Positions 11,176 to 24,994 of a DNA stretch of 32,000 bases are shown here, piece by piece (positions within the stretch are counted from its first letter, which is position 1; each line of letters opens with the position of its first letter). The notes beneath the pieces are model-generated. The model was not told the origin of the DNA, did not search any database, and saw only the letters and a program-made list of their open reading frames with translations. The DNA comes from Pseudomonas aeruginosa (GTDB lineage: Bacteria; Pseudomonadota; Gammaproteobacteria; Pseudomonadales; Pseudomonadaceae), in the NCBI RefSeq assembly GCF_001457615.1, contig NZ_LN831024.1:2760001-2792000 (forward strand), read 5' to 3'. The position numbers were made by a program, and so were the translations under genes.

Positions 11176-11973
11176 TTACAACGCGATATTCCCGACTTTC
11201 GCCGAAGCCGCGTTGTAACGCTGGTGCTGTTTACGCTTGACCGAAGAACTGCGCTTGAAACGCCGGGTCGCCGTAAAGATGTTCTTCAAGGTGATCGGGA
11301 ATACCGTGATCAATCCGTTGCCCTTGTGATATTCCGGGTTCCGATCGAGGAAGAAACGCACATTCGGATTGCTGTGCGTAGCCCAGCGTGCCCGTTCGTG
11401 ATCGGCCTCGGTGGTGGTCCAGCCGGTGTCGACCACCAGCGGATCGTTGCTGCTGCGCTTGAAGCTGAACTGGGCGATCAGGTGTTCGAGGAACTTCACG
11501 TGGTGGCTTTCCAGGTCGCAGTGGCAGGGCCAGACGTCATCCACGTACTTGGTCACCAGGGCGTAGCTGGAGGGATGGATCAGGGTGTCGAGGAACAGCA
11601 GGCGCTTGCCGGGGTTGAGCAACTTGTAGCGCAGCACCTGGCGGGTAAGGAAGGGAATGCTCTGGTTGCTCCCGCGGTACTCCGGGAGGATCCCCGACTC
11701 GGCGCGGATCACGCAGGCCTTGCTGTACTGGAAGACTTCCGAGTCGTGGAAATGCACGGCGCAGTAGCCGACGATCTCGTGCTGGCGGTTGCGGTAGATG
11801 GCGATGCGGGTGAGGCGGGCGGTGGAGTGGATGACCTCGCGAGCGAAGGATTCATACTGGACGCCATGAAAGATCCTGGCGTGAATCGCGTAGAGTTCGC
11901 TTGCGAGGTTTCCCCTCTGTGTTTCGTCGAGTTTTCCCGGGTTGACGACTTCCCGGTAGATCCTGGCAGTCAT
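11176..11973 (-). CDS. Hypothetical protein, low-GC orphan. Possibly a GNAT-fold acyltransferase (weak, motif-level only).
   Basis: ORF 11176-11994. I prefer the ATG at 11973 (MTARIYREV...) because GGAG lies 6 nt upstream, whereas the ATG at 11994 has no SD. GC was about 48-55% in the three lines I counted, against about 65% in the flanks. The upstream region 11995-12180 is AT-rich. The segment GILPEYRGSNQSIPFLTRQVL loosely resembles GNAT motif A. The antisense 310-aa ORF has typical shadow-ORF composition. Confidence 0.6.
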   Translation of the reverse strand: MTARIYREVVNPGKLDETQRGNLASELYAIHARIFHGVQYESFAREVIHSTARLTRIAIYRNRQHEIVGYCAVHFHDSEVFQYSKACVIRAESGILPEYRGSNQSIPFLTRQVLRYKLLNPGKRLLFLDTLIHPSSYALVTKYVDDVWPCHCDLESHHVKFLEHLIAQFSFKRSSNDPLVVDTGWTTTEADHERARWATHSNPNVRFFLDRNPEYHKGNGLITVFPITLKNIFTATRRFKRSSSVKRKQHQRYNAASAKVGNIAL

Positions 11974-12530
11974 AATCTTCTCCGAAGGAATCATCCAATA
12001 TTAATTTTCGAATTTTTTTCATGCCGATGACTTCTTGTTGTTGTGCGTGGAGGTGAGGCTAGGGAAAGTCTATTTCCATATTGTTAACTGGCGCCCCCAT
12101 ACGCCTTAAGCTGCCAGATCTGACAGGGTATTAACTTATATTCGGAACTCGCTTCGGCCCGCGGTGGTCGCTGGCCCGCCGGCCTTTATTCTTTCGCTGC
12201 TTTTCCGGGGATAGGCACATGATGCAGAACATCCACGGTCGCGACGACTTCTTCGCCGCCTGCCGGTCAACCTGCACGCCATACCGCTGCCCGGCGTCTC
12301 CTGTCTACAGGTGGTCCCGCCAGCCTGGCTGGCGGCTGGACAGGGAGGGTCGGCGCACCTGCCGGACCGCTACTCGAACGAAGGGCCGCGTACCACCGAC
12401 TGGCTGGCCAGCGGCGTGGTCAAGCGTCACCGCACGCCGGGCAGCCTGCTCAACCTGTTGATCGGGTTCGGGCTTTCGTCTCAAACGGGTGGAGGAGTGG
12501 AGCCCCTGCGACGAGCAAGTGGCCGCTCGC

Positions 12531-13043: not shown

Positions 13044-13306
13044 AGGAGAAATCCTTCTCTGAGCTGTCCGCTGCCTGGCTTCTGCCGGCGCGGCAGGGAG
13101 ACAGGCCGCTCGTGGGTGTTGGGCCAGCAGGCTGTGGCCTGCCGGGAACCGAAGTCGCCGGCGAAAAAAGCCTACTGACAGCGCCTGTAGGACGGCAATG
13201 GCTAAGCCTTGTACGAAGTCTCCGATGGCACAAGCCCGCTGAACAGCTAGGCCGTTCTGAACATTACGCCGGCATGGAGAAAACAGGGGATGGACGCTAT
13301 GCTTGG

Positions 13307-13437
13307 GAACCCTTTTTTTGGTGGTTTTTTAAAGCCCTTTTAGATCAAAGGGTTAGAGATCGCTGCAAAAAGAGGGTTTTTCCGGGCTTTGGCGCTGGAG
13401 CCCTTGGAGCTTGGAAGGTTGATGGTTTTTGGGTCTA
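13307..13437 (+). promoter_or_regulatory. CRISPR leader of the csy4-proximal array
   Basis: AT-enriched 131 bp directly upstream of the first repeat. Collinear homology to the reverse complement of 23938-24069, with shared blocks ACCCTTTTTT, GCCCTT.TA.ATCA....GTTA, AAAAAGAGGGTTT and GGTT.....GGTTTT.GG..CTA. The degenerate repeats are at the opposite end of the array. Confidence 0.75.
13343..13355 (+). promoter_or_regulatory. Candidate IHF site in the leader (GATCAAAGGGTTA against consensus WATCAANNNNTTR)
   Basis: 12 of 13 consensus-constrained positions fit, with only W mismatched. It lies 83-95 nt upstream of the first repeat, the same offset as the candidate site in the other leader. Confidence 0.4.
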
Positions 13438-14485
13438 GTTCACTGCCGTATAGGCAGCTAAGAAATTTGCCGGGTCACACTGCCCGGACCCGCCACCGTT
13501 CACTGCCGTATAGGCAGCTAAGAAACAGGGCGCGCCCGGAGAAAGTCACGCGCTTCGAGTTCACTGCCGTATAGGCAGCTAAGAAATCGGGAAAGAGACC
13601 ATGACCATCGGTGAAAACGTTCACTGCCGTATAGGCAGCTAAGAAAATCCGGGCCTGCGCAGATCACCCGGCCAGCTTGTTCACTGCCGTATAGGCAGCT
13701 AAGAAAAGGCACTGCAGGCCTACCGGCGTACCCTGCGCGTTCACTGCCGTATAGGCAGCTAAGAAAACGTCAATGCAGAACTCGAACGTCGTGTGCATGT
13801 TCACTGCCGTATAGGCAGCTAAGAAAACCCAGTGAAATCAGTCCCCGCGCTCGTATCGGTTCACTGCCGTATAGGCAGCTAAGAAATTCGACGGCCACGC
13901 CTCAGCCCGGCCCAGGCCGTTCACTGCCGTATAGGCAGCTAAGAAAGAGATCATCCGGCGCAAGCGGGAACAGCTGCTGTTCACTGCCGTATAGGCAGCT
14001 AAGAAATCACGACCTTCTCGAACGTTCCCAGGTACGTAGTTCACTGCCGTATAGGCAGCTAAGAAAAAGGTCAATTCCCAGGTGAAGCAACTGGTGGCGT
14101 TCACTGCCGTATAGGCAGCTAAGAAAGTAGCAGAGAAACTCAACAGCCCGACTGGACGGTTCACTGCCGTATAGGCAGCTAAGAAAGTAGGGATTGTGAG
14201 CGTCGAGGAGCGCCAGGGCGTTCACTGCCGTATAGGCAGCTAAGAAATGCAACTCGAAAACATCGAACGCCGGCGCCGAGTTCACTGCCGTATAGGCAGC
14301 TAAGAAACTGAGCTAACCCGGCTGGGATCCAAATCCTACGTTCACTGCCGTATAGGCAGCTAAGAAATCCTTCGGCTCCGCCGGCCGGATCGCTGCATGT
14401 TCACTGCCGTATAGGCAGCAAAAAATGTCTCGAAGTTCATAAGCGGGCTTCGGGCGATTTCACTGCCACATAGGTCGTCAAGAAA
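13438..14485 (+). CRISPR. Type I-F CRISPR array, csy4-proximal. 18 repeats and 17 spacers, repeat GTTCACTGCCGTATAGGCAGCTAAGAAA.
   Basis: 16 identical 28-bp repeats start at 13438, 13498, 13559, 13619, 13679, 13739, 13799, 13859, 13919, 13979, 14039, 14099, 14159, 14220, 14280 and 14340. Degenerate repeats follow at 14399 (3 mismatches) and 14458 (7 mismatches). Spacers are 31-33 nt. The repeat contains the Cas6f hairpin CTGCC-GTATA-GGCAG and the 8-nt handle CTAAGAAA. Orientation is set by the leader on the left and the decay on the right. Confidence 0.98.
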
Positions 14486-14546
14486 CGGCCAGCAGCCCTG
14501 AAGTATCGATTAATGCGGTTCGCTGTCGGCCGGGGTCACCAGTCGA

Positions 14547-14575
14547 AACGAAGTCCCTTTCCATGGGACTTCGTT
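14547..14575 (-). terminator. Hairpin downstream of csy4, a likely terminator of the cas operon. It also sits between convergent array transcription and the operon.
   Basis: Perfect 11-bp stem AACGAAGTCCC (14547-14557) pairs with GGGACTTCGTT (14565-14575) around a 7-nt loop. On the minus strand it is followed only by a short TTTCG, so the U-tract is weak. Confidence 0.45.
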
Positions 14576-14608
14576 GCGGACATGCCGATAAGGCGCTGAC
14601 GGGGTTCT

Positions 14609-15172
14609 TCAGAACCAGGGAACGGAACCTCCTTTGCTCAACCCGTAACAGGTGAATCCTCCTTCCTCTGCCGTCGCCTGCAACGGCCCGTGGCGGATGA
14701 AGAGACGGAAGTGCTGTCCGGTGCTCTGGCTGCGTAGCGTGACGAAGGGCAGGTCCAAGGTTCTCGCGACCGTATCGGGAATGCGTTTCCGAGCCTCCTC
14801 CTCACTCAGATCGTGCCGGCGCATGAGCCGCCGCCGCAGGCGTTCCGGATTGCTTTTCGCCTGAACCCGACTGACCTGACGGTACGGTGTGGGGTGAGGC
14901 ACGACTGCCGGTTCTCCGAATTGCAGATGGTCCCGCAACCCTTCCAGCCAGGGCCGGGCGAGCAGGGCACGAAGGTCGTCCGCCGAGGCATGAATGCGCA
15001 GGCGCTCGCCCAGCCGGGAGCGGCTTTCGTCGAGGTCGGGGAAGCTCACGCCGATCCTGTCCCCGCCCTGTGCCACCAGGGCCTGGTGGAGCTTGCCGAA
15101 GAGCACGCTCATGAGTTGCGCCGGGGGAAATTCCGGGTCCGGTCGCAAGCGAATGTCGAGGTAGTGGTCCAT
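14609..15172 (-). CDS. cas6f: Cas6f / Csy4 CRISPR repeat endoribonuclease (187 aa)
   Basis: Starts MDHYLDIRLRPDPEF. Catalytic-region His in FGKLHQAL, Ser-rich TLRSQSTGQHF, and the arginine-rich helix RLRRRLMRRH typical of Csy4. Last gene of the operon, with its ATG 3 nt after the csy3 stop. Confidence 0.97.
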   Translation of the reverse strand: MDHYLDIRLRPDPEFPPAQLMSVLFGKLHQALVAQGGDRIGVSFPDLDESRSRLGERLRIHASADDLRALLARPWLEGLRDHLQFGEPAVVPHPTPYRQVSRVQAKSNPERLRRRLMRRHDLSEEEARKRIPDTVARTLDLPFVTLRSQSTGQHFRLFIRHGPLQATAEEGGFTCYGLSKGGSVPWF

Positions 15173-15175
15173 GGC

Positions 15176-16204
15176 TTACTTCTCTTCGGCTTCACCGAAC
15201 ACGCCGCCACGGATCAGGTTGGCGATCACATAATGCTGTTGCTCCACGGCGGGCGCCTCGTCGCGCAGTACCCAGTTGTCGAGCAGCGTATAGAAGTCCA
15301 GCTTCTGCTTGGGCTGGCGATAGGCTTTGCCCTGGGATGTGACGGAGCCGTAGGGCTCCACGGCGATGGGGCCGAGGCCATCTTCGTCGGGATACCACGT
15401 ATCGATGGTGCGCAGGGCATTGCCGATCTTCTGCGAGTGGATGGCCGCGGCATCGCGCACGCTGTACAGGGTCTTGCTCTTCTGGCCTTTCTTGTCGCCT
15501 TTGTCGAGGATCAGTTCCTGGGAGGGGAAGACTTCCTGGCCGTCGCCGATACGGGCGAAGGCGACCACTTCGAGCAGGACATGCCCACTGCCTGAGAGAC
15601 CGCTGGCGATCAGTTCGGCGAGCGCGTCCAGTTCGGCGTCGGCCTTGAAGTCGCGCAAGCCGATGGCCAGGGCGTCGAAGCGCCAGGCGCGAGCCACCTC
15701 GCCCTGGCGGATATGGTTGATACGGACTTCCACCGCTTCCGCGCCCACCCGGTTGCGCCACAGGAAGCGGGCGTTGGCCAGGTTGTGCGCATAACGACGA
15801 GCCAGCTCGGCGAAGCCCTGATCGTTCACGTAGGTGGCGACCGTTTGCAGCAGCTTGTCACGGTAGGCCGCGTCGTTGCAGGCAGACGGTGTTCCGGCGC
15901 CGCCGAGCACACGGAGGGTGAAGCGGACCTTGAGGGTGTCGGCGTCGCTCGGCAGGTTGGCCACGTCCACCGTCTGCAGGTTGGGCGACTGGATCGAGGC
16001 GTCCAGCTTGGCCGGGTCACGGTCCTTGGTCTTGAGGCGGTTGGAGATGGTGCCGCGTACGGACTTCTCGCGCACGGTCACGGCCGGCCATTCCTGCGAG
16101 GCGTCGCGTTGCGCCCAGGCGCCAGCGCTCATAAGGGCGTCGGAAGGGTCGAGCTTACGTTCGAAGGCGAGGACGGAAGCGGTGCTCAGTATTGGCTTGG
16201 ACAT
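15176..16204 (-). CDS. cas7f: Cas7f / Csy3 Cascade backbone subunit (342 aa)
   Basis: I moved the start to the ATG at 16204 ([22 protein letters not shown]...). The ORF-track N-terminal extension to 16567 would overlap csy2 by about 350 nt. Position and size match Csy3. Confidence 0.95.
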
Positions 16205-16214
16205 GCTGATTTCC

Positions 16215-17198
16215 TTATGCGATGGCGTGTTCGACGAAACGGGGTGTGCTCCAGCGGTAGAGCCCTTTGTCAGGCTCGGCGTGGTGATACCAAAGCAGGT
16301 CCGATAACGCGGCGACGCGATGGGGGCTGAGCCATTCGCCCAGACCGAAGAGGTTTTCGACGAAGCGCAGCGGTGTTTCTCTATCACGGGCATTTCGCAC
16401 TTCGCCGGGGAGGTACAGGGGTGACAGGGCGTTGTAGCCAGCCGGGATCGGCACCAGCCAGCCGGGCTTGTCGCGCACTTGCCAGGCTGCATCGGGCGGC
16501 GATGCTTCTTCTTCGGACGAGGTTGCAGGAGGCTCGAAGTTGATTCGACAAAGATCGAGCAGTGCATCGAGCGTGGTGGCTTCGGGGAGCGTGGTGCGCA
16601 AGGTTTCCAGATGTTGTTGCAACAACGCCTCGCGACTCACCAGGGCGAAGCCGGGGAGCAGGCGGCGGGTAAGCCGGCGCTGGTTCTTGCGCCGCTGTTC
16701 GTCGCTGCCACCCAGCATCAGCAGTTCGGCGTTCGGAGCCGGGAAGCGCTCATTGCACCAGGGCAGGATGCTGCCACCGGCGAGGCGCATGGCGCCAGCC
16801 TGCTCCTGTACCTGCCTGGCGATTTCCTGTGCGGGGTGATCGTCCAGACCATCGCCATGCACTCCCAGCAGCAGACTGACCTCCAGATGGGCGCGCCCTT
16901 CTTCGACGATGGCTGCGGTGGAGCCGTCGCGGTTCAGCGGATTGCGGGTCAGGTTGAAGACCTTGGTGCGCTTGCCGGCCGGCTGCGATATCTGCGCTTC
17001 GAAGCGGTGACAGACGATGCCGACACCGTCCAGTTCGATATCGAGGGAGATCCCGACTCGACGCTGCAAGGCATGGACGAATCCGGTGAAAGCGCCGGGC
17101 GAAGGGAAACCCCAGGTCAAGGGGCTGGAAATGGCGTTGGCGTTCTGGATGGACAGGCGTGGCAGCAACAGCAGCGCCTCGGGATCAGTCACGCTCAT
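16215..17198 (-). CDS. cas5f: Cas5f / Csy2 (327 aa)
   Basis: Starts [33 protein letters not shown]. The ATG at 17198 overlaps the csy1 3' end by 14 nt (ATGAGCGTGACTGA). Third gene of the cas1-cas2/3-csy1-4 order. Confidence 0.95.
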
Positions 17199-18489
17199 CT
17201 TCGAGTATCTCCTTGAACATCGTCAGTTCCTTGCTCAGCTCCTGGCTCCATTGGGCGGCTTCCGGGCTACCCAGTATCTGACTGTCGCTGCTGACCGCCC
17301 GGTTCAGCCAGTTGGCGAAGCGATTTCCGACCTCGGCAGGCCAGTCACCTCGTAGTCGGCGCTGCAAGAACGTCTCATCGGTCTGTGCGCGCAACGGATC
17401 GAGCCAGAGCTGCTCCGCGTCATGCAGTTGGCACCCGGGGGTTGCGCTCCAGCCGGGCTCCAGTTCGCGCAGACGGGCGGCGTATTGCAGGGCTTCGTCG
17501 CAGATTTGCCCGACCAGTTGGGCGCGATATCTGCGGATGGTGAAATTGTTATGGCGGGTCTTGGCAAGGAGGCGCTGCAAGGTCCGGGTCAGCCGGGACA
17601 CCTCAGGGCTTCTCCCGAAGTCATGTTCGAAGACCGAGGAATGGCGTATCGGTGCGCGCTGGTCCTGTCTTTGCCAATGTGGCGGAAGCGAAGGTAGCAA
17701 CCAGTTCTCCCCATAGCGCTCGCTGTTCAACTGACTGATGTTCTGCGGCTTGGTACCGCCGAACTTCTGGATCGCCAGGTTGGGGTACTCGCTGAATCCG
17801 TGGGGCCATGACTCCTGGCGGCTGCGCGCTTCGCGTGCCGCCTTGGCCGCGTCGCCGAAGCGCGCTTCGCGGAGCAGAGCGTGGACGTGATGCACCAGAC
17901 TGGTGGGAAACAGCGGTGCTAGCAGGTGGTAGCCGGAACCGGGCAGGGGAAAGTACAACTGCTTGGCCAGGCTGTGGGACGCGGGAGCGCCTTTGACGGC
18001 CGTGATGCCGATGAACGCTTGCCGCCATTCGCGAGCCTGTTCGGCGTTATCGGACAGCGCCTGTACTGCCTCGGCACTGTCTTCTGTCAGCCAGTTCAGA
18101 AGATTTTTACCCTGATACTGGAGACTGAGAAACTTGAATACGTCCAGCGCCGCGGCATTGCCCACCACATCGCTGACCAGCCTGTCACCTAGCTCATGGG
18201 AACCGGCGAGGCCCGGTTGCCCGGGTGCTTGCGGCAGGCTGTGCAGGTTGCTGCCGCGGGCGTCGGGATGGATCGGCTTGAGCGTGTGGGTCACCAACTG
18301 CAACTGGCCGACCCGCCGGGCGGCATCTGCCAGCCAGGCCTCCCGCCGGTGGGTGGCCAGCAATGTCTGGCGCTTGTCGTCTTCGTCGGGATGGAGTTTG
18401 TCCAGCTTGCCCTGGAGGCGCTCCTGGATGAAGGATTCGATGAACTGGCGAAGCTCCTGCCACGTAGGCGTTGGGAGGGGAGAGGTCAT
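17185..18489 (-). CDS. cas8f: Cas8f / Csy1 large subunit (434 aa)
   Basis: ATG at 18489 preceded by AAGGAGG 5 nt upstream. Size and position are those of Csy1 of the I-F Csy complex. Confidence 0.95.
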   Translation of the reverse strand: MTSPLPTPTWQELRQFIESFIQERLQGKLDKLHPDEDDKRQTLLATHRREAWLADAARRVGQLQLVTHTLKPIHPDARGSNLHSLPQAPGQPGLAGSHELGDRLVSDVVGNAAALDVFKFLSLQYQGKNLLNWLTEDSAEAVQALSDNAEQAREWRQAFIGITAVKGAPASHSLAKQLYFPLPGSGYHLLAPLFPTSLVHHVHALLREARFGDAAKAAREARSRQESWPHGFSEYPNLAIQKFGGTKPQNISQLNSERYGENWLLPSLPPHWQRQDQRAPIRHSSVFEHDFGRSPEVSRLTRTLQRLLAKTRHNNFTIRRYRAQLVGQICDEALQYAARLRELEPGWSATPGCQLHDAEQLWLDPLRAQTDETFLQRRLRGDWPAEVGNRFANWLNRAVSSDSQILGSPEAAQWSQELSKELTMFKEILEDERD

Positions 18490-18546
18490 CCATGCCTCCT
18501 TGGTCGATTGTCATTGACGAGTGCTCGCATTCGAAAGCTGTGCTCC

Positions 18547-21500
18547 TCAGTTGTATTTCTTGAACCCCAAATAAGGGTGGTAGCTCCATCCCTGGGTGTT
18601 TTCTCGCAATCTCATCTCGCCGTAGCGCATGGCGCATTGACGCAGGTCGAGGTCCTCGCGGCCGGCCATTGCGACTAGCTCCTCCCGATAGTTGACCGTC
18701 CCCCATGTCTGGATGCGCGGGCCATAGGTGAGGTCGAGGTTGCGCAACAGGTTGTCCTGGTTGCTCCAGGTCCCTTCTTCGTAGCGGCTGAAATGCAAGC
18801 GCTCCTCGTCGTCCTCGTCCGGCAGCAGGGCGTAGCATCGCTCCTTGGCGCCTGCGCGAAATGGTTGGCTGGTTTGCAGGGCGCCGCTGAGCGATGCCGG
18901 GGTTTGCCACCAGAGCGGTACGCCGAGCAGGGACGACGGTGGGTCGTCGGCAAGCATCAGCGCGCGCAGGCGTCGGTGTTCCAGGTCGACCAACCGGCTG
19001 CGTGGGAACAGTGGGAACGGTTCGACGATTCGTGGGCTGGCGTCGATGCGGGCGAGTAGGGCGGGGTCGAGCAGGTCGTGCAGGTCGTGGCTGTCAAGAG
19101 GGAAGTCGGGGGTCTCGAAGCCGGGCCGCTGGAACGCCGGATTCTGCCCTTCCAGCGAGCGGATATTGCGCGATAGCAGGTACAGGTTGGCCTCGCCGCT
19201 GAAGCCGGAGCGATGGCGGCGGATTCGCCCGGCCAACTGGATGATCGAGCGCATGGAGGAGGGTTCGACGATGGCCCAGTCGTAATCGTGGTCGCGACCG
19301 ACCTCCGCCACCGGCGAGGCGAGTACGACGAACAGATGATCCCGCTCCGTGCTGGCCTGGAGCGCCTTGGCCAGCGTCGGACGAGCGAACAGCGCGGCGG
19401 CGTCGTCGTCCGAACGCTTCAGCAGTTCATCGAGTTGTCGCTCGATGGCCGAGCGGACCAGAAGGGGATGCCGCGAATGGTAGACACACAGATGGACATG
19501 CAACCCCTCGGGCGCACCCTGGGCGAGGATGGCCTGGGCCAGTTCGATCAGGGGTTCGATGTTGGCCAGCCGTAACAGGCCGAAACTGATGCGACGTCCT
19601 TGGTGTTCGGTGTGATGGCAGCGATGCAGGTCAGCCATCCAGGTATTCATCTGCCCGGCCAACTCGCGGCACAGCGCGGGACGGGCCTCGCCAGCGGCAT
19701 GCACGGTGCATAGCTGCGCCTGGCGACGTGGCGGCAGTTGCTCGAGCTTCGCCAGACGCTGGGCGACGAAGGTCGCGTGCGCTTCGCTGAAGGAGGTTAC
19801 GGCGCCGTGGGCGCTGGATTGACTGGAAAACTCGTCGAACCAGGCGCAGCAGATTTCCGTAGCGCGTCCGGGAGCGCCACGATGGCGCTGGAAGATTTCC
19901 CGGCCGCTGCGATAGGCCTCGAACAGGCCCTGCACCAAGGCCGGCGGCAGGGTCGCGGAGGAGAGCAGCACGCGGCTGCCGAACAGGCCGGCCCAGTGCA
20001 CCAGCCGCGACAGGGCGGGCAGGTCGTCGATATCGAAGTCGTCGACCTCGTCGAGCACCAGGTCGGAAGTCATCAGGCGGAGCAGTGGCGCTATCTGGTG
20101 TCCGCCGCGCAGGCTTTCGCTGGCGGGCATCAGGTGGTCGATGGTGCAGGCCAGGATGGGCGCCTGGAGTAGGTGGTTTCCCGCGCTGTTCCTGCCGAGC
20201 CACTCGCGTAGAGGGCCGTCCTCGAGCGTGCCGGCGAAATGTACATGGCTGTTTTCCGCCAGCAGTTCCTGGGCTGACTCGCTACCGCTGCGCTCCAGGC
20301 GCTCCTGCTGCTTTTCGAACAGTTCGCGGGCGGCGCTGCCGCCGACCAGGATAGCGAGGTCGTCGTCGCCCAGGCCGAGCCGCTCGCGGTAGGCCTGCCC
20401 GGTTTGCAGGGTCAAGCTGCGCAGGCCGAGAGCGATGCTGAAACGCGCGCCGCGTTGCGGATCGGCCAGCGCATACAGGATGCGGCCGTTGGCGAGGGTC
20501 TTACCGCAACCGGTCGACGCCAGGTTGAGGCCGAAGAATCCATGCTCCATAGCCTGCTCGCGGCAGGCCATCGCGCAGTCGTAGGCCTTGTCCTGCCAGC
20601 GGAAGCGCGGCTGCTCGACCCGGCGGGTGAAGCCCTTGTGCCGGGCAAGGCGCGGTAGTTGTCGCTCCAGGCGTGGCAGGGTGCCGGCGAGCTTGCGACT
20701 GTGCAGGGCGACGCCGAGCAGGTGTTCGTCCAGGCGCTGCTTGAGTTGGCCGCTGTCCCGGTCGGTGTTGGCGTGCAAGGGGAAGTTCGGGTCGCCCAGC
20801 CGGGAGTCGGCAGGGAGACTGGAATAGTGGTGATCCGCGAGCATCAGGATCAGTCGGGACACATGCATGACGTAGGCGTCGTGCAACAAGGCCGGCCCCC
20901 GAGCCAGCAGGCCGGGACGCTCGAGCATGCTCTGCGCGCATAGCGCTGTCCTGGCGCGCCAATGGGGACTGGCGAAGGGCAGGCCGTGGGGGAACTGCCA
21001 GCAGGCGGCCTTTTCTTTTGCGTCTGCGTCGCGTGCGCCGCACCATTGGCTCTGGATGGGGGCCGGCAAGCGTGCCAGCGAGGCGCTGCCGCGATGGTCC
21101 CCGTTGGGCAGGCGATGATGGCTGACGATCAACCAGCCGACCGCCTGAGCGAGCGGCGGTAGCCGGCTTTTCTGGAACGGGCCGGGTGGCGCGGGTTGCC
21201 GGTCGTCCCTGGCCAGTTGCGACAGCCAGGCATCGCCCGTCTCTCGCTTGTCCGCCAGGCGCCGCAGCCAGTCCTCGTCGCTGCTGCCTGGGCCAACGAA
21301 GGCTTCGAACAGGCGCAGTGATACCCATTCGTGACGATAGGCATCTGCCATCGGTTTGCCGCGGTTCCGCAGTTTGGCCTGGAAGGCCTGGCTGGCCTTG
21401 CCGATATCGTGGAACAGCGCTGCCATCACCGTCAGCAGGCGGATGTCCTCGGCGCTGTGCCAGTCGTTCTCGTCTTCCTTGCGCAGGATGTCGCGGCGGG

Positions 21501-21777
21501 TCCTGTTGGTCGGCACCGCACCCTGGGCGTTGAAGCGGCTGGCATCGCCGACGATCCACAGCAGTTCGCTGTGGTCGCGGCCGCGGATCCAGTGACAGGC
21601 TACGGCGGTGTTGCGCCGTGCGCTTTTCTTCAGCAGGCGTCGCAGGGTATCCAGTCCGGCTTGAGTGATGGGCGTTTGCCAGGTCCGTTCGCCGCGGCGC
21701 TCGGCGAACTGGTCGAGAATGCGGCGGGTTTCGCTCAGGGCGCGCTTTTCGCATTGCGACACCAGCAGGATGTTCAT
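18547..21777 (-). CDS. cas3: Cas2/3 fusion (Cas3f): N-terminal Cas2 domain, then HD nuclease, then SF2 helicase (1076 aa)
   Basis: Cas2-like N-terminus MNILLVSQCEKRALSETRRILDQFAERRG. HD motifs LFHDIGKAS and LADHHYSS. Walker A-type STGCGKT. DExD box LVLDEVDDFD. The start overlaps the cas1 stop (ATGA at 21774-21777). Confidence 0.97.
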   Translation of the reverse strand: MNILLVSQCEKRALSETRRILDQFAERRGERTWQTPITQAGLDTLRRLLKKSARRNTAVACHWIRGRDHSELLWIVGDASRFNAQGAVPTNRTRRDILRKEDENDWHSAEDIRLLTVMAALFHDIGKASQAFQAKLRNRGKPMADAYRHEWVSLRLFEAFVGPGSSDEDWLRRLADKRETGDAWLSQLARDDRQPAPPGPFQKSRLPPLAQAVGWLIVSHHRLPNGDHRGSASLARLPAPIQSQWCGARDADAKEKAACWQFPHGLPFASPHWRARTALCAQSMLERPGLLARGPALLHDAYVMHVSRLILMLADHHYSSLPADSRLGDPNFPLHANTDRDSGQLKQRLDEHLLGVALHSRKLAGTLPRLERQLPRLARHKGFTRRVEQPRFRWQDKAYDCAMACREQAMEHGFFGLNLASTGCGKTLANGRILYALADPQRGARFSIALGLRSLTLQTGQAYRERLGLGDDDLAILVGGSAARELFEKQQERLERSGSESAQELLAENSHVHFAGTLEDGPLREWLGRNSAGNHLLQAPILACTIDHLMPASESLRGGHQIAPLLRLMTSDLVLDEVDDFDIDDLPALSRLVHWAGLFGSRVLLSSATLPPALVQGLFEAYRSGREIFQRHRGAPGRATEICCAWFDEFSSQSSAHGAVTSFSEAHATFVAQRLAKLEQLPPRRQAQLCTVHAAGEARPALCRELAGQMNTWMADLHRCHHTEHQGRRISFGLLRLANIEPLIELAQAILAQGAPEGLHVHLCVYHSRHPLLVRSAIERQLDELLKRSDDDAAALFARPTLAKALQASTERDHLFVVLASPVAEVGRDHDYDWAIVEPSSMRSIIQLAGRIRRHRSGFSGEANLYLLSRNIRSLEGQNPAFQRPGFETPDFPLDSHDLHDLLDPALLARIDASPRIVEPFPLFPRSRLVDLEHRRLRALMLADDPPSSLLGVPLWWQTPASLSGALQTSQPFRAGAKERCYALLPDEDDEERLHFSRYEEGTWSNQDNLLRNLDLTYGPRIQTWGTVNYREELVAMAGREDLDLRQCAMRYGEMRLRENTQGWSYHPYLGFKKYN

Positions 21778-22748
21778 GCGGACACCGTGCTCCGCTGCGC
21801 CACGTCTTTCAGCGTGTCGATCATGAAGTCCAGGGCCTGTGCGCGGCTCAGGTTGTCCAGGCAGGCCTGGCGGAAGTCCTGTTCCTCGTCGCCGCGCATG
21901 GCGGAAAGAAATGCCTGCGGCAGGATCAGCGAGTCCTTGATCAGGTCCGCCACATCGAACACCAGGCCTCCGCGCCGGGTCTTGCCGTGTAGTACCGCCA
22001 GTCCATGGGGAATGCCCAGCACCCAGGTGGCGGTCGCCGCGAGGCCGTAGGCCAGGTAGTTGCCATGGTCTAGGAAGCGGTTGGCCGGGTCGCCGCCGCT
22101 GCCGCGCTTGGCGCGGACGAACTCGCCGTAGCGGGTGGCCTGGGCTGCGAGCTTGAACAGGCGCTTGCTCAGGCGCGCTTCTTCGGTCAGTAGATGCTCA
22201 TGATTGGGAGCCTGCTCCAGCGCTCGGGCGGAATCTTCCACGGCAACTGCCAGCGCGGTGGCATCGACGGCGAAGCCGGCGTCGCGCAATACGCGATCTT
22301 CCAGCCAACTGTGGCGAATCCGCTCCAGCCTGACCCGCTGGAAGTGCCGGGCGGCCTCCAGGCGTTTTTCCTCATCGAACCAGAAGCCGACCCAGAGCTG
22401 CAGGTATTCGGTGGGGCGGTATTCGCTCTGCGGCGTCAGCCAGGACACCTCGACGTCCACTTCGTTGGCGCTGAACAGCGGCGTTCCGCCGCCGCCGCAG
22501 AAGCCTACCAATACCCCGGCCCTGGCCAGTTCGCGCATGGCTGCCTGAGTAATGGAGGTACCCGTGCCCAGCAACAGGCTGGTGGTGTTGGCGATGGGGA
22601 TGTTCCAGTAGTGCGAATGCCGGCCTTCGTCGGTGACGTACTCGACCCGCCCGCCGTTGACCAGTACCCGGCAGTGTTGCAGGTAGTACAGGTTGGCACG
22701 CTTGGAGTGAAGGATCGTCTTCAGTTCGCTGGGAGAAATGTCGTCCAT
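21774..22748 (-). CDS. cas1: Cas1 integrase, I-F type (324 aa)
   Basis: Starts MDDISPSELKTILHSKRANLYYLQHCRVLV. Conserved acidic/His active-site region HGLAVLHGKTRRGGLVFDVADLIKD. First gene of the operon, adjacent to the second array. Confidence 0.97.
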   Translation of the reverse strand: MDDISPSELKTILHSKRANLYYLQHCRVLVNGGRVEYVTDEGRHSHYWNIPIANTTSLLLGTGTSITQAAMRELARAGVLVGFCGGGGTPLFSANEVDVEVSWLTPQSEYRPTEYLQLWVGFWFDEEKRLEAARHFQRVRLERIRHSWLEDRVLRDAGFAVDATALAVAVEDSARALEQAPNHEHLLTEEARLSKRLFKLAAQATRYGEFVRAKRGSGGDPANRFLDHGNYLAYGLAATATWVLGIPHGLAVLHGKTRRGGLVFDVADLIKDSLILPQAFLSAMRGDEEQDFRQACLDNLSRAQALDFMIDTLKDVAQRSTVSA

Positions 22749-22949
22749 GCTGACCGTGGCCTGTCCCTATCGGATCTATCGAATTCTGCGCCAAGGCAAA
22801 TGTTTAGCGGATATGGCCGATTGCCGCTACCCCGTTTTCGTCTGTATGAGGAGCGTGAGCTTCCAAGCGGGGCACATTGTCGTGGACGGGCGAGGCGGGA
22901 GGGCGGGGTAGGAACTTTTATATTCGGATGTTTGGGAGCGGGATGGGGA

Positions 22950-23937
22950 GGGTGGTTCTGCCTAGACGGCAGCGAACCCGGCGGCTGTTGTGGCCGAGGT
23001 GGGTTCGAGTTTCTTAGCTGCCTACACGGCAGTGAACTTAGAAATTTGGGCCATGTTCAGGCTCCTCTTTTTCTTAGCTGCCTACACGGCAGTGAACGTG
23101 CCGCTCAGCCTGACCACGGGTTACGGCCATTTCTTAGCTGCCTACACGGCAGTGAACAACTTCGCATGCGCCTCGTTCATGCCGGCGATTTTCTTAGCTG
23201 CCTACACGGCAGTGAACTATGCAAGCGTCTCGCAGCGTCGGGTGTCCCATTTCTTAGCTGCCTACACGGCAGTGAACAAGCCCGAGGCTCCGACGCTGGT
23301 CGTTGACCTTTTCTTAGCTGCCTACACGGCAGTGAACACATCGGTCGGCTCGACCAGGCGGCCCAGGGCTTTCTTAGCTGCCTACACGGCAGTGAACAAC
23401 GCGCTGACGGCCTGCGACGGTCGGGACATTTTCTTAGCTGCCTACACGGCAGTGAACTCTCCGGTCGGGTCAGCGTGACGGTCGTCAGTTTTCTTAGCTG
23501 CCTACACGGCAGTGAACTTTAATGAAGTCGAGTACGGCCTTGACGCCCATTTCTTAGCTGCCTACACGGCAGTGAACGGGCAGCGCCCTACGATCTTGTT
23601 TGCCGTCCATTTCTTAGCTGCCTACACGGCAGTGAACCAGCCGCGCCCACTCCAGCTTTGCCAGGTCCATTTCTTAGCTGCCTACACGGCAGTGAACCTC
23701 CACGCCGGCGGAATCGGCACGGACTGGCCTTTCTTAGCTGCCTACACGGCAGTGAACCATTACTTGTCGCGTGAAAGATGACCGACTGTTTTCTTAGCTG
23801 CCTACACGGCAGTGAACTGAAAAACCTGAAAAAACTGTTCGTTCGTGGTTTTCTTAGCTGCCTACACGGCAGTGAACAAGTTTTGGAAGCCTCTCCCGCG
23901 AAGCCCAGTTTTCTTAGCTGCCTACACGGCAGTGAAC
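22950..23937 (-). CRISPR. Type I-F CRISPR array, cas1-proximal. 17 repeats and 16 spacers, repeat (minus strand) GTTCACTGCCGTGTAGGCAGCTAAGAAA.
   Basis: 16 identical repeats (plus strand TTTCTTAGCTGCCTACACGGCAGTGAAC) start at 23010 and recur every 60 bp exactly to 23910. All spacers are 32 nt. One degenerate terminal repeat lies at 22950-22977. The leader is on the right, so the array is transcribed on the minus strand towards cas1. Confidence 0.98.
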
Positions 23938-24069
23938 TAGCTCCGAAAACCTATAACCATTTGAAGGAAAAAGAAATACCGAGTTTTTCCCTCCAGAAAC
24001 CCTCTTTTTTCGAGGTCTCGTAACTTGCTGATTTATAAGGGCGTAAGAAATCGTCCGAAAAAAGGGTCG
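23938..24069 (-). promoter_or_regulatory. CRISPR leader of the cas1-proximal array
   Basis: AT-enriched 132 bp. Its reverse complement is collinear with 13307-13437, at roughly two-thirds identity by eye over the distal 75 nt plus 14/21 in the repeat-proximal block. Confidence 0.75.
24021..24033 (-). promoter_or_regulatory. Candidate IHF site in the leader (minus strand AATCAGCAAGTTA)
   Basis: Fits WATCAANNNNTTR with one mismatch. Same 83-95 nt offset from the first repeat as 13343-13355. Confidence 0.4.
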
Positions 24070-24163
24070 GAAGCTTCGGGCAATTGGCGGCCGTTTCGCG
24101 AGGACCGGGACGGCGATCAAGCGTGCCGTTCGGACGCGAAAGGTCTTGTGATGGCGATGCCGC

Positions 24164-24187
24164 AAAGCCCCCGGCCAGGCCGGGGCG
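24164..24187 (-). terminator. Weak GC hairpin plus TTT downstream of the small ORF
   Basis: Minus strand reads GCCCCGG-CCTGG-CCGGGGGC followed by TTTGCGG. The stem is only 6-7 bp with a bulge. Confidence 0.35.
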
Positions 24188-24205
24188 TCGCGCCAGGGAG
24201 CGGCG

Positions 24206-24433
24206 CTACAGGCTCGGGTGGCCCGCCTCGATTTCGGACAAGGCATCGCTGAGCAGCGACAGCAACGCACCGTTGATGTAGGCCAGGGTGCCGCCGGGCT
24301 CTTCTTTCTCATCGAGCAAACGGGTCATGGCCAGGATGTTGATCGCCGACCTCAAGCGCACTTTCGCGTTGTCGAACAAGTGCGTGGGGAGTGCATGGGT
24401 GTCCACGTACAGGGTGGCGCTACGCGGACACAT
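24206..24433 (-). CDS. Small hypothetical protein (75 aa as drawn). Possibly the 3' part of a frameshifted gene of about 105 codons starting at 24519. I recall a loose resemblance to DUF3077-type small Pseudomonas proteins.
   Basis: Very high third-position GC in this frame. The ATG at 24433 has no obvious SD. A strong AAGGAG-N7-ATG lies at 24519 in another frame (see findings). Confidence 0.45.
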   Translation of the reverse strand: MCPRSATLYVDTHALPTHLFDNAKVRLRSAINILAMTRLLDEKEEPGGTLAYINGALLSLLSDALSEIEAGHPSL

Positions 24434-24732
24434 GTCGGCCTGGGAGGTGGGGAGCAGCGGGACGAAGCGGGGGACGATTCTGTTAGCTCGGGGTTGGACG
24501 TATCATTCGGCTTAGCCATGGGTCAGCTCCTTAATAAGCTGGGTTGTGGTTAGCGGGTCGTAGGTGTTCCACCACCTGCGGCCCGCGTCTTTTTTGCCCT
24601 CAGAAAATAGAGGGCAGTGCCGTTCGGTCCTGTCCCTGCGGGATGGATTTGCCGGCCCCTCCATCATCCTCCTACTGGGTTTTTATCCAATTCCCGGGCT
24701 TCTGAGAGAGCCTGCGGAAATGTCCGGGGGAG

Positions 24733-24994
24733 CTGTCCGGCGTTTCCAGGGCCTGTAGGGCGAATACCGCCACAGGCGGTATCCGCCGATACCCCGGATA
24801 AGCGGCGGATAACCGCGAGCGGTTATTTGCCCTACGGAGTTGGGGTGCTGTCCGGCGTTTCCGGGGTGCGTAGGGCGAATAACGCCATGGGCGTTATCCG
24901 CCGATGTCGCGGATGAGCGGCGGATAACCGCGAGCGGTTATTCGCCCTACGGACCCGGGGAGGTGTCGGCGTTTCCAGGGCGTTATCCGCCGAT
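24733..24994. repeat. Tandem REP-like intergenic repeat cluster: two units of about 115 bp and a partial third
   Basis: Unit 1 spans 24733-24837 and unit 2 spans 24848-24952. Each reads CTGTCCGGCGTTTCC(A/G)GGG..GTAGGGCGAATA(C/A)CGCC...GGCGGATAACCGCGAGCGGTTATT(T/C)GCCCTACGG. Internal inverted repeats run GTAGGGCGAATAAC...GTTATTCGCCCTAC. A partial copy GTGTCGGCGTTTCCAGGGCGTTATCCGCCGAT lies at 24963-24994 and abuts the stop codon at 24995. Confidence 0.7.

Follow-up and report, generated by a model that had tools for sequence, protein, structure and literature searches.

The closest described relatives of the locus analysed here are the type I-F (Csy) CRISPR-Cas systems of Pseudomonas aeruginosa strains PA14 and ATCC 10145. 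According to a recent preprint (PMC13142298, 2026), the interval between oprD and pvdL is where the I-F locus has its canonical position in this species, the cas1-side array is named CR2 and the cas6f-side array CR1, and a system of the same architecture as the one described below has been studied by promoter fusions, plasmid interference dependent on the protospacer-adjacent motif (PAM) and primed adaptation. We analysed a 32,000-nucleotide stretch of P. aeruginosa DNA (contig NZ_LN831024.1, positions 2,760,001–2,792,000; hereafter, the window), in which a two-array CRISPR-Cas locus occupies positions 13307–24069. The locus is almost certainly a complete, apparently intact P. aeruginosa type I-F system that is already known down to the level of its spacers.

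Cas genes and type assignment

An earlier note, made from the sequence alone, had described six co-oriented genes in the I-F order, and the open reading frames (ORFs) bear out both the order and the lengths given there. All six lie on the minus strand: cas1, encoding the I-F integrase (21774–22748, 324 residues); the cas2/3 fusion, encoding a Cas2-like domain, an HD nuclease and a superfamily 2 (SF2) helicase (18547–21777, 1076 residues); cas8f/csy1, encoding the large subunit that reads the PAM (17185–18489, 434 residues); cas5f/csy2 (16215–17198, 327 residues); cas7f/csy3, encoding the backbone subunit (15176–16204, 342 residues); and cas6f/csy4, encoding the endoribonuclease that processes CRISPR RNA (crRNA; 14609–15172, 187 residues). 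On translation, none of the six ORFs contains an internal stop codon or a frameshift. The cas2/3 gene overlaps the stop codon of cas1 by 4 nt, and there is a 14-nt overlap between csy1 and csy2. In the mechanical ORF list csy3 appeared with 463 residues, the start being an upstream in-frame ATG located inside csy2; the start of the 342-residue protein is preceded by a ribosome-binding site, AAGGAA, and corresponds to residue 1 of the solved chain. The intergenic region between array B and cas1 (22749–22949, minus strand) presumably contains the cas promoter, and the region upstream of cas in ATCC 10145 has promoter activity (PMC13142298).

The six proteins were searched with NCBIfam equivalog models for type I-F, which have curated cut-offs, and with Pfam models. 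All scored far above the cut-offs, and none failed to hit its I-F profile: Cas1 reached 510 bits with TIGR03637 (cut-off 150), Cas2/3 (Cas3f) 1256 bits with TIGR02562 (566), Csy1 385 bits with TIGR02564 (169), Csy2 300 bits with TIGR02565 (154), Csy3 451 bits with TIGR02566 (158) and Csy4 170 bits with TIGR02563 (36). All six also passed the corresponding Pfam models, which resolve Cas2/3 into Cas3_I-F_Cas2 (residues 1–79) followed by Cas3_HD and the C-terminal domains.

The earlier note had proposed alignment to the PA14 Csy proteins; over their full lengths, the six Cas proteins are 96–100% identical to solved P. aeruginosa chains. Cas1 differs from PDB 9p11_F by three substitutions, and Cas2/3 matches 8flj_M over its full length with eight substitutions in the printed parts of the alignment. 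Csy1 is identical to 7ecv_A and 95.9% identical (18 differences) to the PA14 chain 5uz9_A; in the printed alignments there are no differences between Csy2 and 5uz9_B or between Csy3 and 5xlo_A. Csy4 differs from 7elm_I at one position, with S183 in place of F. We considered S183 as a possible lesion and ruled this out: among public assemblies, 6750 index blocks list exactly this Csy4 sequence, which is therefore a widespread allele.

The nuclease, helicase and integrase motifs, which had been read as intact, are indeed so. Residues E190, H254, D265 and D268 of Cas1, H123-D124, the Walker A motif GCGKT (423–427) and DEVD (576–579) of Cas2/3, H29, S148, Y176, R102, Q104 and F155 of Csy4, and N111, K247 and N250 of Cas8f are all present; in the PA14 system these residues are catalytic or bind RNA or the PAM.

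We assign the locus to type I-F because the six proteins pass the I-F equivalog profiles and are 96–100% identical over their full lengths to solved chains. In keeping with type I-F1, Cas1 is of the I-F type, Cas2 is fused to Cas3 in one polypeptide, the genes for Cas8f, Cas5f, Cas7f and Cas6f follow in this order downstream of cas2/3, and the arrays combine a 28-bp repeat of the CRISPR-DR4 type bearing a 5-bp hairpin with spacers of about 32 nt and a 5'-CC PAM. The sequence holds nothing that argues against type I-F.

CRISPR arrays, repeats and leaders

Two arrays flank the cas genes. Array A, on the pvdL and cas6f side (13438–14485, plus strand), consists of 18 repeats, of which 16 are perfect and two, at the trailer end, are decayed, and 17 spacers. 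Array B, on the cas1 and oprD side (22950–23937, minus strand), consists of 17 repeats, 16 perfect and one, adjoining cas1, decayed, and 16 spacers. The arrays thus contain 33 spacers, the total given in the earlier note. Their orientations are opposite: array A is transcribed towards csy4, with which it is convergent, and array B is co-directional with cas1.

The repeat pattern GTTCACTGCCGTRTAGGCAGCTAAGAAA has 33 matches at no more than three mismatches, as opposed to none expected in shuffled sequences, and the gathering score of the Rfam CRISPR-DR4 family is reached at the same 33 sites, in agreement with the 28-bp I-F repeat of the earlier note. Two further, more decayed terminal repeats lie at 14458–14485 and 22950–22977. 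Spacers are 32 nt long in 29 of the 33 cases, 33 nt in two and 31 nt in two, spacer A17 having been trimmed to 31 nt after the last repeat was placed at 14458. In both arrays the decayed repeats are found at the leader-distal end, where the oldest part of an array is expected to lie.

The repeat of array A is GTTCACTGCCGTATAGGCAGCTAAGAAA, with A at position 13, and that of array B is GTTCACTGCCGTGTAGGCAGCTAAGAAA, with G at this position. For both versions the predicted fold is a hairpin of −8.6 kcal/mol with a stem of 5 bp and a loop of 5 nt, and it is in the loop that they differ by one base, A or G. The opposite array orientations, this difference of one loop base and the decayed terminal repeats had not been mentioned in the earlier note.

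Each array is preceded by an A+T-rich leader. That of array A (13309–13437, plus strand) lies directly upstream of the first repeat; that of array B (23938–24067, minus strand) is homologous to it over about 130 nt, the two sharing AAAAAGAGGGTTT and a terminal CTAG. The locus as delimited in the earlier note, 13307–24069, reaches on each side to the outer end of a leader. Other P. aeruginosa assemblies have leader B at about 98% identity, and it is also conserved before a separate mini-array (L046).

An 11-bp hairpin (14547–14575, unstranded) lies between the convergent array A and csy4, in a region (14487–14608) with a predicted folding energy of −51.2 kcal/mol and a z-score of −2.65. The hairpin has no T-run and hence is not a canonical intrinsic terminator; it probably serves as a transcription stop or an insulator. 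In another P. aeruginosa strain, the cas6f-side array is split by an insertion sequence encoding a 387-residue rve-family transposase (L022, 11440–12602).

Spacer targets and PAM usage

The 33 spacers, concatenated with N-spacers, were searched against phage and plasmid collections, as the earlier note had suggested. Twenty of them match P. aeruginosa phages or plasmids with zero to two mismatches, and all the phage records matched are Pseudomonas phages. Spacer B10 targets Mu-like phages of the DMS3/JBD/D3112 kind and A16 targets D3/PMG1. The replication protein O gene of phi2/MD8 is matched by A11 and A13, phages zjk6/D14E by A14, B12 and B13, and the integrase region of Fyn8/EV13 by B04 and B05. 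Pf-like inoviruses are matched by A02, A06, B02 and B06, other phages by A10, A12, A15, B01 and B15, and a small Rep plasmid by A08. No spacer matches the rest of the 32-kb window at six or fewer mismatches.

Spacer B09 (23398–23429) targets the traI/rlx relaxase gene of MOBP plasmids of about 35 kb. The match is perfect and is accompanied by a CC PAM (L013, 8001–8032). The targeted family, recorded in Escherichia coli, Serratia, Citrobacter, Providencia, Klebsiella and P. aeruginosa, includes pSN1216-29, a self-transmissible, broad-host-range plasmid (PMC6232296, PMC7296055). In B09 the chromosome thus keeps a memory of plasmids whose family is spread over several genera. Together, the 33 spacers document encounters with temperate siphophages, Mu-like phages, Pf filamentous phages, a small Rep plasmid and, through its relaxase gene, a family of plasmids of about 35 kb.

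The dinucleotide CC stands directly 5' of the protospacer, on the strand identical to the spacer, in 17 of 19 cases, and 3' of it in one of 19. The two exceptions to the 5' rule are spacers of odd length: A02 (33 nt), where CC straddles the boundary, and A16 (31 nt). The position of CC confirms both the direction of transcription deduced from the leaders and the canonical I-F PAM.

Relatives of the locus

Look-up of the exact Csy4 and Cas2/3 sequences retrieved chromosomes of the P. aeruginosa type in which the layout is the same. Three public assemblies, GCA_021587285.1 (L026), GCA_013867645.1 (L025) and ENA ERZ27233815 (L027), contain the same 15 + 16 spacers, counted between well-preserved repeats, in the same order and are 99.91–99.99% identical in nucleotide sequence to the window over 15.6–16.3 kb. 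The exact locus is therefore already public. The earlier note had claimed no novelty for what it recognized as a member of the P. aeruginosa Csy family, and both the solved chains and the shared spacers agree with this judgement. The locus adds nothing new to type I-F biology; its value is descriptive, in that it places the window in the P. aeruginosa chromosome at the pvdL–oprD site, preserves the record of exposure given above and offers a signature for strain typing.

More distant relatives share parts of array A. Assembly L019 has spacers A03–A13 and A16 and lacks the leader-proximal A01 and A02, as expected for polarised acquisition; its array B is unrelated, and its cas1, csy2, csy3 and csy4 genes differ from those of the window by 0–4 nucleotides. 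Assembly L015 shares only the trailer-end spacers A09, A10, A15 and A16. This is the usual pattern of gain at the leader end and conservation at the trailer end.

Proposed mechanism and current activity

On the model established for PA14, each array would be transcribed from its own leader, and Cas6f would bind the 5-bp repeat hairpin and cut at its 3' base. Processing would yield 60-nt crRNAs, each composed of an 8-nt 5' handle, CUAAGAAA, a 32-nt spacer and a 20-nt 3' hairpin, on which Cas8f, Cas5f, six Cas7f subunits and Cas6f would assemble as the Csy surveillance complex. This complex would find a 5'-CC PAM next to a matching protospacer, form an R-loop and recruit Cas2/3, which would nick, unwind and degrade the target. 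New spacers would be inserted at the leader-proximal repeat by the Cas1–Cas2/3 complex. Nothing in the sequence points to a mechanism different from that of PA14. By analogy with the described systems, the locus is presumably expressed and active in this strain.

Some limits attach to this reading. Simple sigma-70 and terminator scans found no sigma-70-like promoter in either leader, a simple promoter scan found no sigma-70-like site upstream of cas1, and the window differs from its closest relatives by at least two homopolymer indels, none of which is in the cas genes. The lack of promoter-like sites in these simple scans would agree with a locus that is intact but silent, owing to inhibition by prophage anti-CRISPR proteins or to transcriptional repression, and that persists as a memory bank but does not interfere. 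Temperate phages of the DMS3/JBD/D3112 group are matched by many spacers and frequently encode anti-CRISPR proteins against type I-F. However, all the genes are intact and evidently under purifying selection, given the 0–4 differences from L019 in cas1, csy2, csy3 and csy4, and there is no acr or aca gene in the 32-kb window. Moreover, a system of the same architecture, possibly from the same strain, is expressed, interferes and adapts (PMC13142298). We therefore regard a silent locus as distinctly unlikely.

Chromosomal site and history of the locus

The window extends from the C-terminal 3677 codons of a nonribosomal peptide synthetase gene to treA. The synthetase is called as a 4342-residue protein in related assemblies and corresponds to pvdL of the oprD–pvdL site. 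According to the gene calls of related assemblies, the interval from pvdL to array A contains a gene of unassigned function that has no family matches (about 11176–11994, minus strand), followed by a gene with a Bro-N domain that resembles phage anti-repressors (12531–13043, minus strand). On the other side of the locus follow, in order, genes for a Phenol_MetA_deg family protein, an OprD-family porin, an isochorismatase, a pirin and a LysR regulator, and treA. In 13 other assemblies the architecture and position are the same: pvdL, the Bro-N gene, an array, the cas genes, an array and the OprD-family porin gene. The Bro-N gene is conserved at the site both in P. aeruginosa and in P. paraeruginosa, which lacks the cas genes, and the G+C content around it and its neighbour is 0.58–0.64, compared with 0.70 in pvdL.

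A scan of GTDB genomes for the site returned P. paraeruginosa and other species, and not P. aeruginosa. In P. paraeruginosa ATCC 9027 (L028), the flanks are collinear with those of the window at 85–98% identity, and positions 13465–24989 of the window are replaced by about 420 bp, so that the cas genes are gone together with both arrays and the sequence upstream of array B. ATCC 9027 nevertheless keeps the leader of array A and one decayed repeat (L028 11200–11420, corresponding to window 13300–13465). The locus was therefore ancestral at this site and was lost in P. paraeruginosa. The site in that species is a remnant of loss, and the locus described here is not a recent insertion.

This history bears on the weakest alternative, a system carried by a mobile element (an integrative and conjugative element, a plasmid or a transposon, for example of the Tn7-like I-F3 kind) rather than resident in the chromosome: the drop in G+C content from about 0.70 in pvdL to 0.54–0.68 across 11–25 kb and the phage-antirepressor-like Bro-N gene beside array A would fit such an origin, but the locus has cas1 and a cas2/3 of the HD-helicase kind, no tns or tniQ genes, integrase or tRNA occur in the window, the flanking gene order is identical across many P. 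aeruginosa chromosomes and the P. paraeruginosa remnant indicates ancestral presence followed by loss, all of which make it very improbable. A Tn7-associated type I-F3 system in particular was rejected, given intact cas1 and cas2/3, separate cas8f and cas5f genes and no transposition genes in the window.

In L025, homology to the window extends only as far as 24838, a point 901 bp upstream of array B that coincides with the end of the first of the 115-bp units described below. Beyond this point, L025 (1–7840) has a different context upstream of the 900-bp block, with glpR, glpK, glpF, a ybaK-like gene, FGGY and PhzF. The genome of ATCC 10145 contains, at another place, a second copy of a block of about 900 bp upstream of the cas1-side array (PMC13142298), and the L025 breakpoint fits an exchange between the two copies of this block. 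The L025 context suggests either a large rearrangement between the two copies or a misassembly.

The 115-bp unit is present in 2.2 tandem copies of 84% identity at 24727–24981. Nested inverted repeats of the form GGCGAATAACGCC/GGCGTTATCCGCC abound in the units, and the region gives sub-threshold Rfam matches to the Pseudomonas small RNA P33.

A mosaic cas8f allele

The substitutions that distinguish Cas8f from its PA14 counterpart are clustered. In comparison with L019, which carries the PA14-type allele, 51 of the 57 nucleotide differences in cas8f fall within 222 bp, in a patch at 17509–17733 (codons 253–327), and the rest of the gene is nearly identical. Within the patch, the synonymous divergence (dS) is about 1.1, and the ratio of nonsynonymous to synonymous divergence (dN/dS) is 0.12. 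We rejected positive selection, or escape from anti-CRISPR proteins, as the source of the clustered substitutions in view of the high dS and the dN/dS of 0.12. High dS in the patch together with almost no divergence outside it is the signature of import by recombination from a diverged cas8f.

The patch starts just after the PAM-reading residues K247 and N250 and turns R259 into Y. In Cas8f, R259 is reported to be a contact of AcrIF7 in the non-target-strand channel (PMC10155984). The window-type allele, or a variant of it with a single residue changed, is found in eight of ten sampled genomes and is that of PDB 7ecv_A. This mosaic gene, with the replacement of R259, is one of only two points in the window that might repay further work.

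A SymR-like RNA and a small gene upstream of array B

The other such point is a pair formed by a SymR-like RNA and a small ORF, located about 270–650 nt upstream of array B and thus outside 13307–24069. The predicted RNA (24514–24596, plus strand) is antisense to the gene of a 104-residue protein of no assignable family (24206–24520, minus strand), which lies about 270 nt upstream of array B. Rfam family RF01809 (SymR), a family of 77-nt cis-antisense RNAs that lie over the ribosome-binding site and start codon of a partner gene, matches over its full length at 24514–24589 with 49.3 bits and E = 1e-8, below its gathering score of 61; a weaker match to PtaRNA1 falls at the same place. The RNA is predicted to fold into two hairpins, the second being a 14-bp stem followed by a run of six U residues (overall z = −6.6), and it covers, in antisense, both the ribosome-binding site (AAGGAG) and the ATG of the 104-residue gene. 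A match to the Rfam R1162 antisense RNA on the minus strand was rejected as the mirror image of the plus-strand hairpins, since it is only on the plus strand that the stem is followed by the U-run.

An exhaustive profile search of 1.84 billion representative sequences found only 27 relatives of the 104-residue protein. The protein occurs in four groups, the window type and three others that are 75%, 52% and 36% identical to it, and all four keep the RNA at the same position. The RNA region is 88–92% conserved, and the terminator helix is 100% paired, with two compensatory changes. P. aeruginosa and its relatives carry the RNA-gene pair at no fewer than four chromosomal sites. An I-F leader and array come after the gene, in the same orientation, in the window type and the 75% group, whereas the 52% and 36% groups have no array; conversely, in strain L021 the leader and array are there but the gene is missing.

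The 104-residue protein has no Pfam match even at E = 10, and NCBIfam-style and PHROG searches were also empty. Its AlphaFold model (pLDDT, the predicted local distance difference test score, 78) consists of an extended N-terminus followed by an α-helical hairpin, for which there was no PDB match at E ≤ 0.001; Foldseek returned generic helical hairpins only. We rejected the identification of the protein as SymE, which has an AbrB-like fold, on the grounds of the α-hairpin model and of the absence of Pfam and PDB matches in these searches.

In the window the gene is frameshifted: one C is missing from a C6 run at about 24432, which leaves ORFs of 55 and 75 residues. It is intact in the closest relatives (L025 and L026) and in other strains. 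A second homopolymer-length difference lies just downstream of the gene, at about 24185, and the two indels are due either to errors in sequencing or to very recent mutation.

Several natural alleles of the gene (P0004, P0024, P0032, P0034, P0039 and P0042; alignment A4) contain short out-of-frame stretches that return to frame. These stretches sit in the N-terminal region or in the loop between the helices, and the C-terminal helix is preserved. The pattern in these alleles suggests that frameshift followed by compensation may be tolerated in the N-terminal and inter-helix segments.

From its sequence, the arrangement of RNA and gene resembles that of type I toxin-antitoxin pairs and may be a cassette of this kind. 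The cas1-side leader could belong to a portable block of about 0.9 kb that joins the SymR-like RNA, the gene for the 104-residue α-hairpin protein and an I-F leader with its array, a proposal that we make tentatively and consider doubtful. The preprint noticed the duplicated 900-bp upstream block and makes no mention of the RNA-gene element (PMC13142298). Should the pair prove to be a true type I toxin-antitoxin or addiction cassette, CRISPR arrays could be stabilised or mobilised by it. The safeguarding of CRISPR loci by CreTA-type elements follows a loosely comparable logic. Such a role, if true, could extend to the isolated arrays, for which the preprint offers no explanation other than duplication (PMC13142298).

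Comparison with described systems

The locus shares with that of PA14 its gene order, the lengths of all six proteins (324, 1076, 434, 327, 342 and 187 residues), the 28-bp repeat, the layout of two arrays in opposite orientations, the 32-nt spacers and the CC PAM. In contrast, its spacer content is entirely strain-specific, with 17 and 16 spacers compared with 14 and 21 in PA14 (PMC13142298), and its Cas8f is the other of the two alleles seen: 18 residues differ, 15 of them in 256–327, including R259Y.

The arrays of ATCC 10145 contain 15 and 17 spacers (PMC13142298), which is compatible with the 15(+1) and 16(+1) counted here, depending on whether decayed terminal repeats are included. The source strain of the window may possibly be ATCC 10145 itself. 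Closest of all are the three assemblies that carry the same spacers in the same order (L025, L026 and L027), from which the window differs by the two homopolymer lengths at about 24432 and 24185 and, in the case of L025, by the upstream context beyond 24838.

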